From positions 256,001 through 320,000 of the forward strand of contig CAWBCT010000005.1 in assembly GCA_963787445.1 (NCBI GenBank): DNA of 64,000 nucleotides, read 5' to 3'. The translations under genes were made by a program, and so were the position numbers. Origin of the DNA: an uncultured archaeon. GTDB lineage: Archaea; Micrarchaeota; Micrarchaeia; Micrarchaeales; CABMGC01. The notes under the pieces were generated by a model. That model made no database searches, was not told where the DNA came from, and saw only the letters and a list, made by a program, of their open reading frames with translations. Positions 29,146 through 34,531 of the stretch are shown one piece after another. Position 1 is the first letter of the stretch. The number at the start of each line of letters is the position of its first letter.

Positions 29146-31396
29146 ATGCTTTCCGTTGAGGCGATTCTGGAGCACATGCTTAAGATAAGCAGCGACGCCT
29201 CCGGCACCGCCCCTCTCATAAGCGGCTTTGCGGCGCAGCTGAAGGACTCCCTGAAGGCGGACGAGGCACGCTCCAACGGTCTGGACTCGAAGGGCAGCAA
29301 GCCAAACGTCGCGGAGGCCTTCGCGCTGAACACCGGGAAGCCCTACCTTGACAACAGCCTGAGCGGCTACTCCGCCTTCCCGGAGCTGATAAACTACTTC
29401 AACAACGGGTTCAGGAGCTGCCTCCTGATACCGGTGAAGTCGGACAGCAAGGGATTCGGCGCGATAACCCTTCTTTCGCGGAACGAGGCCTTCTTCAGGG
29501 AGGACGAGGTGGCGACGATACGTTTCCTGAGCAACCTGGTCGGGAGGGAGTGCGAGACGGTGAGTGAGAGGGACAGGAGGATAGCGCTCGCGCAGTACTT
29601 CGACGCCTCCTTCGAGAGCGCGGCGCCGCAGTGCGTCGTGGACAGGCAGGGCACGGTCATCCGGGCGAACAGGAGCCTGCTGAACCTGCTGGGCCTGGAG
29701 GGGAAGCAGCTGGAGGACGAGAAGCTCACCCACTTTCTTGACTTCAAGGCGAGCATGCTGGAAAAGTCGGAGGGGTCGCCTATCGAGGTCTCGAGCAAGT
29801 TCGGCAGGAGGCTCTCCATAAACTCAAAGGCCATAAACGGCGAGCTGTTCCATCTCCTCGTAAGGGACGTGACGGAGCTGGGCACCCTGAGGGGACGCGA
29901 GGCCTTCTTCTCCTACGGGACAGAAGAGGGCTTCCTGCTTCTCGATCCCAGCACAAGGATATACTGGGCAAGCCCGAACATGGCAAGGGCGTTCAGATGT
30001 GGAGCCCGACTATCTTGTCGGCAAGAAGCTCCTTGACCTGGTGAAGAATAGGGAGGTCCTCTCTGGACTGGGCGCCATCGGCGCTGGTCAGCCTCCGACC
30101 TACGAGCTTGACATCAAGCTTGCAAACGACATCAACGCCAATGCGAAGGCGACCATCCTGAAGAACGAGTACGGCTTTGGAGTTATACTGGCAAGAAACA
30201 ACGAGCGCTTCGTGAGCAACATGCGCCGCGGCCTCGACGAGCTGATGCGCGTCTCGAGCGACATGGTGATGATACTCGACAGCCTAGGCTACATAAGGAG
30301 CATAAACCGGAGCGCCGAGAAGCTGCTCAAGTACAAGGGGGAGGAGCTGAACGGCCTCTCGATCTCCTCGCTGTGCGCCGACTCGGAAAGCCAGATGCGC
30401 ATAAGCAACGGCCTGAACATAGCGAGGACGAGCGGGATCGTCACGGACATCTTTGTGAACTGGAACGCGAAGGGCGCGCCGGCGCCGCTTCCGGCTCAGC
30501 AGAACATACGCCCGATGTACGACGAGTCGAACCGGCTTTCGGGCTACATGCTGGTCGGGAAGGAGCTGGCGACGAAGAACACCATAGCGAGGCTGGAGGA
30601 GCTCTCGGGGAAGAACGAGAAGGACATGAGGAAGTACAAGGAGGAGAGCGAGCGCAAGACGGATTTCATAAACAGCATCTCGCACGACCTGAAGACCCCG
30701 ATAACCAGCATCTCGGGCTTTGCGAAGCTGATGCTCGAGGACAGCTCCTACGGTAAGCTAAATGAGGAGCAGGAGAACACGCTGAAGATAATAATAGACG
30801 AGGCGAAGAGGCTCTCCTTGCTGATAGAGCGCATACTCGACGTGGCGAAGCTCGAGGCGAACAAGATAAAGCTTGACCTGCAGCAGGTCAACTTCAACGA
30901 GCTCAGCCAGAACGCGGGCATAAAGTCGTTGGAAGGCGCGGCCACGCAGAAGGGCCTGTACTTCAGGTTCATCGTAGAGTACGATGTGCCGGTGATAGAG
31001 GCCGACCCGAACCGCCTGATACAGGTGTTTGTGAACCTGGTAGGCAACGCGATAAAGTTCACGGAGAAGGGCGGGATAACAGTGCACGTCACCAGGAACG
31101 GGAAGAAGAGCAAGAGGGTGAGGATCGGCGTGAAGGACACGGGCATAGGGATAAGCAAGGAGGACAAGGCGAGGCTGTTCAAGAAGTTCTTCCAGATAAA
31201 CAAGGACGAGGCGCTGAGAAGGGGCGGCTCGGGCACAGGGCTGGGGCTCACGATAGCGAAGGAGCTGGTGAACCTGCACGGAGGCAGCATAGGCATAGAG
31301 GCGGAGCCGGGCAAGGGGAGCGAGTTCTGGTTCACGCTGCCGGTAAGCGGCCCGAAGAAGAAGGGCGCGCTGGCTTCGGAAGCCAAGGCCGCGTAA
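29146..31396 (+). CDS. GAF/PAS sensor histidine kinase (one frameshift about 29995)
   Basis: ISHDLKTP H-box, NLVGNAIKF, DTGIG, GSGTGLGL; GAF/PAS N-terminus in ORF 29146-30036. Confidence 0.9.
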
Positions 31397-32354: not shown

Positions 32355-32969
32355 ATGAACATGACTTCAACGCTCTCATCCTTGCTGGGATTGGGTTCGG
32401 TAAACACATTCATCTTGCATTATGGCTACCTAGCCATACTCGTGCTTATGGCCCTAGAGGCCGCCTCCCTGCCAATACCGAGCGAGGTGATACTTCCAGT
32501 GGCGGGATATTTCATCGCACAGGGAACCCTGACTTTTCTAGGCGTGCTCGTTGTCGCACTCGTGGGCGAGATCATAGGTATGTCGATAGACTACTTCATA
32601 GCCTACTACCTGAACAAGGCCGTGGTTTACAAGCACCTTGGGTTCTTCCACCTGACGGCATCAAGACTTGACGCGTTCGACAGGTGGTTCCAGAGGAACG
32701 GGAGCTTTGCGGTTTTCTCACTCAGGCTTGTGCCCATAGTCAGGGGTCTTATAAGCTTCCCCGCGGGCTTCGCAAAGATGCCGAAGAAACAGTTCTACTT
32801 CTACTCCATACTGGGCTCTCTGATCTGGAACATGCTTCTGATCGGGTTCGGCTACTACGCGCTCAGCCAGAGCAGCATAGGCCTGGCGGTGATCCTGATG
32901 GCTGTGCTAGGGGTGTTTCTTTACATATTCTACGAGATCGTGGTCAGAAAAATAAGAAAGCGCGCCTGA
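32355..32969 (+). CDS. DedA family membrane protein
   Basis: LE...PIPSEV, RLVP..R..ISFPAG. Confidence 0.92.
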   Translation: MNMTSTLSSLLGLGSVNTFILHYGYLAILVLMALEAASLPIPSEVILPVAGYFIAQGTLTFLGVLVVALVGEIIGMSIDYFIAYYLNKAVVYKHLGFFHLTASRLDAFDRWFQRNGSFAVFSLRLVPIVRGLISFPAGFAKMPKKQFYFYSILGSLIWNMLLIGFGYYALSQSSIGLAVILMAVLGVFLYIFYEIVVRKIRKRA

Positions 32970-33305
32970 TTACTCCTCTTCCTTCTTCGGTTTCTCTATG
33001 ATGTACTTCTCGACTATCTTGATTACCTGGTCGATGGAGCGCTTGATGTCCGCCTCGGTCTTCGAGCCTGCGCAGATCACCTTCCCGTTCTTGAACAGAA
33101 GCAGGGCGGTCTTCGGGTCGGCTATCTTGCAGATCGCGCCCGGGAACTGCTCGGGCTCGTAGTCCACGTCGGGCGAGTTCTTCGCTATGGCGTAGAGGTC
33201 CAGCTCGACGCCCAGGTCTGCGCTGGCTACGATGTTGACTATCTTAAAATCAGGGTGAAGCAGCGCCTTCATGTTCGGCTTCTTTGGCTTCGGTTTCGCT
33301 ACCAT
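32970..33305 (-). CDS. Single-repeat TATA-binding-protein (TBP) domain protein
   Basis: IVNIVASADL..LDL, YEPEQFPG, LLFKNGKVICAGSK: exactly one TBP repeat in 111 aa. Confidence 0.9.
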   Translation of the reverse strand: MVAKPKPKKPNMKALLHPDFKIVNIVASADLGVELDLYAIAKNSPDVDYEPEQFPGAICKIADPKTALLLFKNGKVICAGSKTEADIKRSIDQVIKIVEKYIIEKPKKEEE

Positions 33306-33404
33306 GGTGATCCTTTATAAACCTTTATAAATAGACGTGAAAGGTATATATATGTTTTTCTGTCAAACTATCTTGAGCTATTTATCTATCAGCGGAGGAG
33401 CTAC

Positions 33405-33698
33405 ATGACCCAGCGTTCACACGGATTGTTCTCAGGCAGAAGCAGGCACCTTGCCCGCCACAACATGCCTTCCAAGTTAGGCATAACCAAGAAGATCAAG
33501 CAGTTCGAGATAGGGAGCAAGGTGCAGGTGATGCCCAAGGGCAACTTCAGGAACATCCCGCACCCCAGGTACAGGAACAAGATAGCAACAGTCATAGGCA
33601 AGCGGGGAGAGGCCTACGTCGTAGAGATAAAGGTCGGCAAGTCGATAAGGCGAAGGCTGATAGTGCCGCAGATACACCTGGACTACTTCTCCGCATAG
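33405..33698 (+). CDS. rpl21e: 50S ribosomal protein L21e
   Basis: F..GSKV, PHPRY, GKRGEAY.V, LIV.QIHL. Confidence 0.93.
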   Translation: MTQRSHGLFSGRSRHLARHNMPSKLGITKKIKQFEIGSKVQVMPKGNFRNIPHPRYRNKIATVIGKRGEAYVVEIKVGKSIRRRLIVPQIHLDYFSA

Positions 33699-33733: not shown

Positions 33734-34531
33734 TTAGCTGAAGGTGAGCGACTGGGTTGCGGAGCAGCCCTTTAGGAACATGGCATTGACGGTCAGGCTT
33801 GTCGGGGTGGAGGCGGTTATGTAGGTGGTCGCTGTGCCGTTCGCATTCGAGAGAGTATAGGAGGGGGCGATCACGCCGAGAGCGCTCGAGGAGGTGAAGT
33901 TCACCGTCGCACCGGCTATGGTGGTTCCGCCGTAGGCTATTATCGCGGTGAGCATGTCGGGGGTGCCGTGCACAGGGGTTGCCGTTGCGGCGGTGAGGCC
34001 GATGCTGCAGGTGGAGATGGCGGTGTACGGGCCTGTGCGGGTTGAGAAGGTGCCGTTAAAGCTCTCAAGGACGTTTGCGGTGCAGCTTGCAGTCCCGATC
34101 TGGGTGCAGACGGTCTGGTTGTAGACCATGAAGCCGGTGAGGGTTGTGCCTATGGTGAACGGGCTGGCACCTGTTGCGTTGCAGATTACCGAGCCGCCGC
34201 TTAGGACGAAACCCGGGCCGCAGCGGGTGCGGATGTTGCCGTAGGAGCTGACGTTGATGTATAGGGTGGGATTGACTATCGCATAGTCCTGCCCGTTTGT
34301 TATGAATACCTGGTAGATGGAGTTCGCGGTGTTGGAGGTTATGACTATGTCGCTGCACGGGACTGCGACCGAGAACGTGCATTGGGAGGGCACGGCAACA
34401 AGCAGCTCGTTGAGCAGGAAGTAGACCACCGCCATGGCGCCGACTATTATTATGATTGCCCAGCTGTAGGTGGTGAGAAATTCCACCGCGGACTGGCCGC
34501 GCAGGGCCTTGCTCTGAGCCTCGTTGTCCAT
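33734..34531 (-). CDS. Type IV pilin-like surface protein with Ig-like C-terminus
   Basis: Class III signal LRG/QSAVEFLTTYSWAIII. Confidence 0.85.
   Translation of the reverse strand: MDNEAQSKALRGQSAVEFLTTYSWAIIIIVGAMAVVYFLLNELLVAVPSQCTFSVAVPCSDIVITSNTANSIYQVFITNGQDYAIVNPTLYINVSSYGNIRTRCGPGFVLSGGSVICNATGASPFTIGTTLTGFMVYNQTVCTQIGTASCTANVLESFNGTFSTRTGPYTAISTCSIGLTAATATPVHGTPDMLTAIIAYGGTTIAGATVNFTSSSALGVIAPSYTLSNANGTATTYITASTPTSLTVNAMFLKGCSATQSLTFS

Follow-up and report, generated by a model that had tools for sequence, protein, structure and literature searches.

TBP is regarded as a factor that all archaea and eukaryotes possess in a two-lobed form, and the textbook inference is that it arose by duplication and fusion of a homodimeric single-lobe ancestor. 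To our knowledge, no living example of that ancestral state has been known so far. Canonical archaeal TBP structures include those of P. woesei (1PCZ, 1AIS, 1D3U), M. jannaschii (2Z8U) and Sulfolobus (1MP9). From solved TBP-DNA complexes, we take the DNA contacts of each lobe to be an intercalating phenylalanine pair (F54/F71 in the protein described here) together with Asn and Val on strand S1 (N24, V26). From the TBP-TFB-DNA structures 1AIS and 1D3U, EYEPEQFPG in the C lobe of archaeal TBP is presumably the stirrup that binds TFB.

Three described systems come close to the locus analyzed here. In DPANN archaea with reduced genomes, a normally single-chain protein can be made from two unlinked genes. 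Such split genes are named in passing in the available text of one comparative paper (PMC8407392). Single-domain TBPs are also on record: according to the available text of Brindefalk et al. (2013, PMC3597702), these are haloarchaeal TbpA and a divergent group of ~95 aa in Thermococcales, each occurring beside a full-length TBP, with TbpA being non-essential and the Thermococcales group highly diverged from TBP. The third system comprises the haloarchaeal sets of TBP and TFB paralogues, in which a general factor has been duplicated and the paralogues may divide promoters among themselves; haloarchaeal plasmids carry many TBP copies.

The window examined in the current study is a stretch of 64,000 nt of archaeal DNA, and contains a gene for a half-sized TBP, termed A (table 1). 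A reading of this DNA from its letters alone (the sequence-only reading) had described a 111-aa ORF with one TBP repeat, the motifs NIVAS, YEPEQFPG and LLFKNGK..GSK and a basic N-tail, boxed in by the convergent dedA stop and the divergent rpl21e, with no second repeat hidden by a frameshift. The ORF and a single PF00352 stretch agree with this description, all motifs and the tail (MVAKPKPKKPNMK) are in the translation, the coordinates of the neighbors fit, and a six-frame PF00352 search of the whole genome (E <= 10) found no second repeat adjoining A.

Table 1. Positions of the half-TBP genes, their parts and the genes adjoining A (window positions unless a contig or locus is named).
Feature	Position	Strand	Basis and remarks
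Half-TBP gene A	32970..33305	-	111 aa, single TBP lobe; stop codon 32970-32972 (ORF list and PF00352)
TBP repeat of A, residues 19-101	33003..33251	-	Pfam match; genome search gives the same span, C5:289003-289251
Contents of the A repeat	N24, V26, F54, L69, F71, stirrup Y49-G56 (YEPEQFPG), F71-K75 (FKNGK)		Invariant alignment columns and both lobes of solved archaeal TBPs
Basic N-terminal tail of A, MVAKPKPKKPNMKALLHP	33252..33305	-	Translation; predicted contact with partner at residues 10-14 (model)
Short C-terminal tail of A, IIEKPKKEEE	32973..33002	-	Translation
DedA/VTT membrane protein gene	32355..32969	+	PF09335, E 8.2e-21; convergent, last base directly before the TBP stop codon
Divergent intergenic region A/rpl21e	33306..33404	.	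Candidate promoter region, read from sequence
rpl21e	33405..33698	+	PF01157, E 1.2e-11; divergent, start 99 nt from the TBP start codon
Half-TBP gene B	C5:463677-463994 (L002:1447-1764)		105 aa, single lobe; PF00352 match C5:463731-463979

The PF00352 (TBP) match covered the whole profile (1-85/85) in one stretch over residues 19-101 of A, with an E value of 2.9e-28 and a score of 98 bits against a cut-off of 22.9, which places A in the TBP domain family. All ten NCBIfam full-length TBP models scored A at 66-91 bits, against cut-offs of 181-347, and matched with half of each profile, as a half protein should. A lacks the two tandem repeats in a chain of ~180-200 aa that define the NCBIfam PRK00394 models; its entire ORF is a single TBP domain, as in monopartite TBPs. 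By architecture A is outside the two-lobed TBP protein family. The basic N-tail was kept in a 98%-identical relative (P0090), and most single-lobe relatives have Lys-rich tails of varying sequence ahead of the lobe. All 92 single-lobe frames closed within 23 residues past the lobe.

Several findings are those expected of a working TBP lobe. N24, V26, Y49-I58 (YEPEQFPGAI) and F71-K75 (FKNGK) were invariant over 20 representative S, N, C and B lobes, and the same residues were conserved in the families of A (39 rows) and of B (38 rows), B being the second half-TBP gene of the genome. The DNA-contact residues N24, V26, F54 and F71 were invariant in three alignments; the YEPEQFPG motif was likewise present and invariant. 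A matched the two lobes of P. woesei TBP with 65.7 and 78.3 bits (E 8.6e-42 for the protein) and those of M. jannaschii TBP with 73.5 and 72.1 bits; its phenylalanines and stirrup were in register with both lobes of both proteins. A shares with canonical archaeal TBP the domain family, the motifs, the Phe pair, the N/V minor-groove residues and the YEPEQFPG stirrup motif, and it shares its genomic locus with the two-lobed TBP of related families. The difference is that the canonical protein has two lobes per polypeptide whereas A has one, so that a saddle needs two chains. In comparisons of orthologues pN was ~0.1 with pS at saturation, and the gene is under purifying selection.

The source genome (G000) is a 1.05-Mb assembly of 19 contigs, 82% complete and with 5.4% contamination. 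It contained exactly two PF00352 matches (six-frame, E <= 10), A and B, which lie 175 kb apart on contig C5 and are 51% identical (45/89 residues). No two-lobed TBP was detected in this 82% complete genome by the same search, and the lack of such a gene rests, because of that degree of completeness, on the relatives, closed genomes included. The core idea of the sequence-only reading, a real stand-alone half-TBP, was therefore upheld, and the rest of the genome, to which it had pointed for either a full-length TBP or a second half, yielded the second half and no full-length TBP. The B family kept every DNA-contact and stirrup residue, had a mean column identity of 73%, and showed family-specific invariant residues V27, H32, A33, F59 and I69. 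Several B-type orthologues are entered as "hypothetical protein" in NCBI records, and as TFIID/TBP at JGI; such genes are under-called by automated annotation.

All 41 genomes examined from the order (three families and 28 genera, G000 included) had unlinked single-lobe PF00352 matches only, each in its own frame and never adjacent. Two matches were found in 33 of these genomes and one in the other eight. Both copies were present, far apart, in the single-contig genomes G032 and G039, and every one of the 25 high-quality genomes of the order set had single-lobe matches only. The full TBP to which A might be accessory was found neither in G000 nor among the 41 order genomes.

In a sample of the whole phylum, a TBP domain was detected in 196 of 201 genomes, and 111 loci were fetched, of which 92 had one lobe per frame and 19 had two. 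The order and phylum counts include two unpublished genomes (G038, G214), on which no conclusion rests. The phylum is taken to be Micrarchaeota from the titles of records and the names of proteins, and some B-type loci come from records titled Micrarchaeaceae. Three states were observed. A two-lobed protein of ~190-220 aa was found in families f4, f5, f6, f8, f9, f13, f19 and f23. Family f3 and some members of f1 had two unlinked halves. A lone half was seen in other members of f1, most of f7, and f10-f12, f14-f18, f20, f22, f25 and f26. The one-half state was seen in closed (G060, G064) and near-closed (G013, G044, G106) genomes, and in genus g12 six of seven genomes had one match and the seventh had none.

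Some loci of the sample deserve separate mention. On contig C1 of G122 (family f7) three unlinked single-lobe genes (L064, L065 and L066) were 79-97% identical, one pair having a pS of 0.02, indicating that half genes duplicate repeatedly in other lineages too. The only f2 genome (G025, 82% complete) had a single lobe on contig C8 (L010) without an rpl21e or glycosyltransferase neighbor; in the lobe trees this lobe grouped with f14/f25, outside the A and B clades, and EF-2 placed its genome as sister to f1+f3. Divergent two-lobed TBPs were present on short contigs (3.7 and 8.4 kb) of two half-TBP-order genomes (L255, G054:C77:1153-3695; L111, G159:C43:2493-3491). L255 grouped with non-Micrarchaeota outgroups in lobe trees and L111 formed a long branch; contamination may explain the two genes, or they may be mobile or foreign copies. 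A search of genome contigs for related loci gave 80 loci, of which nearly all had Micrarchaeota titles and none could serve as an outgroup; TBP genes of the same kind occurred in genomes titled Methanothrix, Iainarchaeum, Diapherotrites and Nanobdellati.

Gene neighborhoods were compared in 119 TBP-bearing frames (loci >1.7 kb; 118 loci, partly duplicates of one another). The rpl21e gene divergently adjoined 50 single-lobe and 22 two-lobed TBP genes, a glycosyltransferase gene adjoined 25 single-lobe B-type genes, and 16 single-lobe and six two-lobed genes had neither neighbor. Since rpl21e is common to single-lobe and two-lobed genes, A corresponds by position to the ordinary TBP gene, as its orthologue. 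The locus beside rpl21e, where A sits, is the ancestral TBP locus; the paralogue B occupies another locus that is conserved as well. The DedA/VTT gene downstream of A was kept in most loci of the same family. Full-length orthologues at this locus had been named by the sequence-only reading as a sign of local deletion or misassembly. Two-lobed genes do stand beside rpl21e in one clade of the phylum, but the change in repeat number is common to whole orders and the locus is reproduced by independent contigs, so that neither local deletion nor misassembly applies. Beside rpl21e, a 265-aa protein with a hydrophobic N-terminal segment (33734-34531, minus strand) had a weak Big_1 match (E 3.7e-06) below the cut-off, and upstream of KsgA a 465-aa ORF (29999-31396, plus strand) resembled a histidine kinase by eye; both are unrelated to the half-TBP finding.

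That A is an artefact, whether a truncated pseudogene, a two-lobed gene broken by a frameshift or the product of misassembly, has a negligible probability. The TFB gene of the same assembly is frameshifted, so the assembly is not free of errors, and otherwise no support for an artefact was found. Against it, an independently assembled contig of 988 nt covered 32676-33663 with one mismatch and no indel, and another of 846 nt was identical over 32360-33205, which argues that A is not a misassembly (the contigs were assembled from four public runs, all belonging to a single study that may comprise the source sample). Moreover, a second repeat was absent from every frame, the 92 fetched single-lobe loci shared the architecture with proper starts and stops, and the gene is under purifying selection. 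It is likewise very improbable, if slightly less so, that the half-TBP is an accessory modulator or decoy, with a genuine two-lobed TBP that incomplete assemblies simply fail to show. Such a reading could draw on the 82% completeness and 5.4% contamination of the genome, and on the single-lobe proteins beside a full TBP that the available text of PMC3597702 records in Halobacteria and Thermococcales. It is contradicted by the 0 of 41 order genomes, closed ones included, with a two-lobed match, and by the 25 of 25 high-quality genomes of the order set with single-lobe matches only. A furthermore sits next to rpl21e at the conserved locus of TBP, and its sequence is near true TBP lobes (E 8.6e-42 to P. 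woesei TBP), which sets it apart from the divergent Thermococcales group. A role purely as TFB or promoter modulator, one option of the sequence-only reading, is unlikely, as there is no full TBP to modulate.

The general TBP of this organism is probably assembled non-covalently from two half-TBPs. A single lobe makes up half of the saddle, and no lobe protein other than A and B is present, so the active factor must be a dimer of lobes. A would be the subunit of the general TBP, with one lobe per chain. In the dimer, two S1 strands would run antiparallel across the dyad and rebuild the ten-stranded DNA-binding sheet, with each lobe supplying one intercalating pair (F54, F71) and one YEPEQFPG stirrup. 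A alone may act as a symmetric homodimer, as in A-only relatives, and in G000 it would mostly be paired with the unlinked B, a heterodimer restoring in trans the arrangement of two different lobes found in ordinary TBP. TFB and the BRE would give initiation its polarity. In archaea, according to the available text of PMC6640164, the binding of TBP to the TATA box is symmetric, and it is TFB that determines in which direction transcription proceeds. A symmetric TBP would be workable because polarity is already set by TFB/BRE. Dimerization, TATA binding, TFB recruitment and partner choice are inferred.

The complex of A and B was predicted from family alignments of 39 (A) and 38 (B) rows. The score was 0.74 in three runs and 0.00 for the best of three controls; among solved complexes 58 of 80 attain this mark, as do 2 of 110 mismatched pairs, counts that are rough here since own alignments were used. 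At least 90% of contacts agreed between the runs, and the partner pLDDT was 86. In the model, residues 20-29 of A lie antiparallel to residues 20-28 of B (25/25, 22/26, 26/22), and the C-terminal helices and N-tails also contribute to the interface, which we take to be the S1/S1' seam of ordinary TBP. A and B are thus predicted to pair via the canonical inter-lobe interface. A:B was the only pair run, so that it is not ranked against A:A or B:B, and because solved TBPs contain the same lobe-lobe interface, the passing score may mirror this likeness rather than pair-specific evidence.

A:B as the main species in G000 is slightly favored over separate homodimers. If A and B each homodimerized, each could be a general factor for its own set of promoters, in the manner of the haloarchaeal TBP paralogues, and we regard this as rather unlikely, while giving it far more weight than an accessory role. 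A works without B in the A-only relatives, and the homodimer competence of A is supported both by these genomes and by natural A-A fusions (see below). B retains all DNA-contact and stirrup residues and is highly conserved (mean column identity 73%), other lineages duplicate single-lobe genes (three copies with 79-97% identity in G122), and lobe-specific HMMs show no clear division of labor into an N-like and a C-like lobe, all of which would suit two homodimers. On the other side, the A:B model, the pair that was modelled, uses the canonical inter-lobe interface with high confidence, and the B-specific residues V27, H32, A33, F59 and I69 lie in or beside the modelled interface strand (18-33), which would fit adaptation to a partner. 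The sequence-only reading had offered both a homodimer and pairing with another half. Either may apply, the former being backed by A-only relatives, which argue that A can work alone, and the latter by a model that passes its controls. The resemblance of A and B to the haloarchaeal paralogue sets ends at the architecture, since the haloarchaeal TBP paralogues analyzed here are complete two-lobed proteins whereas A and B are single lobes that could combine.

The history of the lobes was reconstructed from lobe trees, based on 91 columns only, and from an unrooted EF-2 tree of 43 genomes and 714 columns. All B copies of f1 and f3 formed one clade (SH-aLRT 98 with 22 rows; 100/100 with 14 rows), and since this clade holds copies from both families the A/B duplication predates their split. 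In the EF-2 tree, A-only f1 genomes stood in two places among A+B genomes, G021 being sister to G000 (99) and G064, G060 and G013 being sister to G017. Given this nesting, B was lost at least twice, and A then suffices. Slower evolution of A in the A-only genomes was considered and dropped, as the EF-2 branches are shorter there too. The 13 two-lobed genomes all fell, with G157 (TBP state unchecked), into one clade (99); the one-lobe family f16 was sister to it (95), and the other one-lobe lineages lay outside.

Seven TBPs, drawn from haloarchaeal plasmids and from hits not resembling Micrarchaeota, served as outgroups; three were haloarchaeal, one was named Thermoplasmata and three were unnamed. 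The Micrarchaeota lobes, 54 in number and of all four kinds (S, N, C and B), lay on one side of a branch supported at 100/99.7, and the outgroup N lobes formed a clade of their own (96/80). Constraining N lobes with N lobes and C lobes with C lobes across the outgroups, as expected from an ancient N/C split, was 38 lnL units worse, with a marginal p-AU of 0.028 for a hypothesis named after the trees had been seen. With the haloarchaeal outgroups alone, a single clade of all N lobes was not rejected (p-AU 0.3). The quick LG+G4 and the careful C20 lobe trees were at odds over the placing of the N and C lobes, inside or outside the single-lobe group.

Within the two-lobed proteins of the phylum the lobes resembled each other unusually closely: in 15 of 19 they were 55-73% identical, whereas four haloarchaeal TBPs gave 32-40% and the Thermoplasmata TBP gave 52%. 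The synonymous divergence of N from C lobes (pS 0.31-0.70) did not clearly indicate gene conversion, because A and B of one genome also give a pS of 0.49. Two proteins of 195 aa from contigs of ~1 kb (P0001, P0002) were two-lobed, with lobes 86-90% identical within each protein. The N lobe of P0001 shared 88% identity with the A-only protein of G013, and each of the four lobes was placed among the f1 A sequences. These proteins are best read as products of a recent tandem duplication and fusion of the half gene. As they consist of two such similar A-type lobes, A-type lobes do pair with near-copies in a normal TBP chain. Judging from the sequences, repeat number is labile in the phylum, and its lobes either derive from one lobe or have been homogenised.

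The sequence-only reading had also proposed a split TBP, with an N half and a C half, and this found no support. B is nested among single-lobe sequences, as a paralogue from inside the single-lobe lineage, and the Micrarchaeota lobes stand apart from the outgroup N and C lobes; neither half maps clearly to N or C. The lobe-specific HMMs gave no N-type or C-type assignment, the C minus N difference being -9.8 bits for A and -3.0 bits for B. The likeness to the split genes of DPANN archaea is therefore that a one-chain protein is encoded by two unlinked genes, and the difference is that neither A nor B is an N or C piece of a single ancestral gene and that many relatives have one piece only. Tentatively, and with somewhat less than even confidence, Micrarchaeota may have passed through a one-lobe TBP stage and since replayed the origin of TBP several times. 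Most lineages would have remained on a symmetric homodimer, and the order of the window would have arrived at two different lobes in trans (A and B) by duplicating the half gene. A covalent two-lobed TBP would have been regained through tandem duplication and fusion of a half gene in one lineage at least (P0001/P0002), and possibly in the entire two-lobed clade.

The finding is real, conserved and biologically meaningful. Like the monopartite euryarchaeal TBPs, A is a stand-alone ORF with a single TBP domain. Those proteins, as far as the available text on them goes, coexist with a full TBP, whereas for A no two-lobed TBP was found and the protein is near true lobes and at the TBP locus. Single-lobe TBPs beside a full TBP are thus known, and single lobes that, from the genome sequences, appear to be the only TBP are new. 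No report of lineages with a single lobe as their only TBP was found in the part of the full-text literature that was covered, nor, within the same coverage, a report of Micrarchaeota or other DPANN archaea without a two-lobed TBP (including PMC8407392 and PMC11237513). The comparative DPANN paper counts TBP as conserved in its available text (PMC8407392), and a term search of papers on cultured or newly named Micrarchaeota (PMC8784108, PMC8561730) gave no mention of TBP or TATA. Since full-length models miss half-TBPs, and B is named "hypothetical protein", TBP could be scored as absent or partial in such genomes. Whole orders of the phylum appear to transcribe with single-lobe TBPs only, and a single conserved locus displays three states next to each other (one half, two unlinked halves, fused). 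The half-gene lineages are a natural model for the first origin of TBP, and they open to test directional initiation by a symmetric homodimer with TFB, the value of lobe asymmetry, and the ease with which repeat number changes.

The intergenic region between A and rpl21e contains a tandem 10-nt direct repeat (cctttataaa, twice, 33312-33331), which yields two TTTATAAA boxes, each a perfect palindrome, at 9-26 nt before the A start; boxes this close to the start codon would fit a leaderless transcript. A TATATATA stretch lies within 33345-33353, between the two genes, and GGAGG at 33393-33397 precedes rpl21e. TATA-like words were strongly enriched within 60 nt upstream of ORFs (866 crude ORFs); TTTAAATA occurred 30 times against 1.5 expected, with its reverse complement occurring 15 times; the palindromic TTTATAAA occurred 13 times against 1.2 expected, and TTTATATA was similar (13). 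A match between a symmetric TBP and palindromic TATA boxes was considered and is unsupported: the favored genomic word, TTTAAATA, is non-palindromic, and promoters therefore give no hint of a symmetric binder.

The genome has one TFB gene. This sole TFB/TFIIB gene of the assembly lies outside the window on contig C5 (~575677-576592; L205:1138-2053), in two overlapping frames. ORF1 (228 aa) contains the Zn ribbon and cyclin repeat 1, and ORF2 (85 aa) contains cyclin repeat 2. The frame changes at a short T run near L205:1805-1810, and either an error of the assembly or a genuine frameshift or split could explain the two-frame reading.
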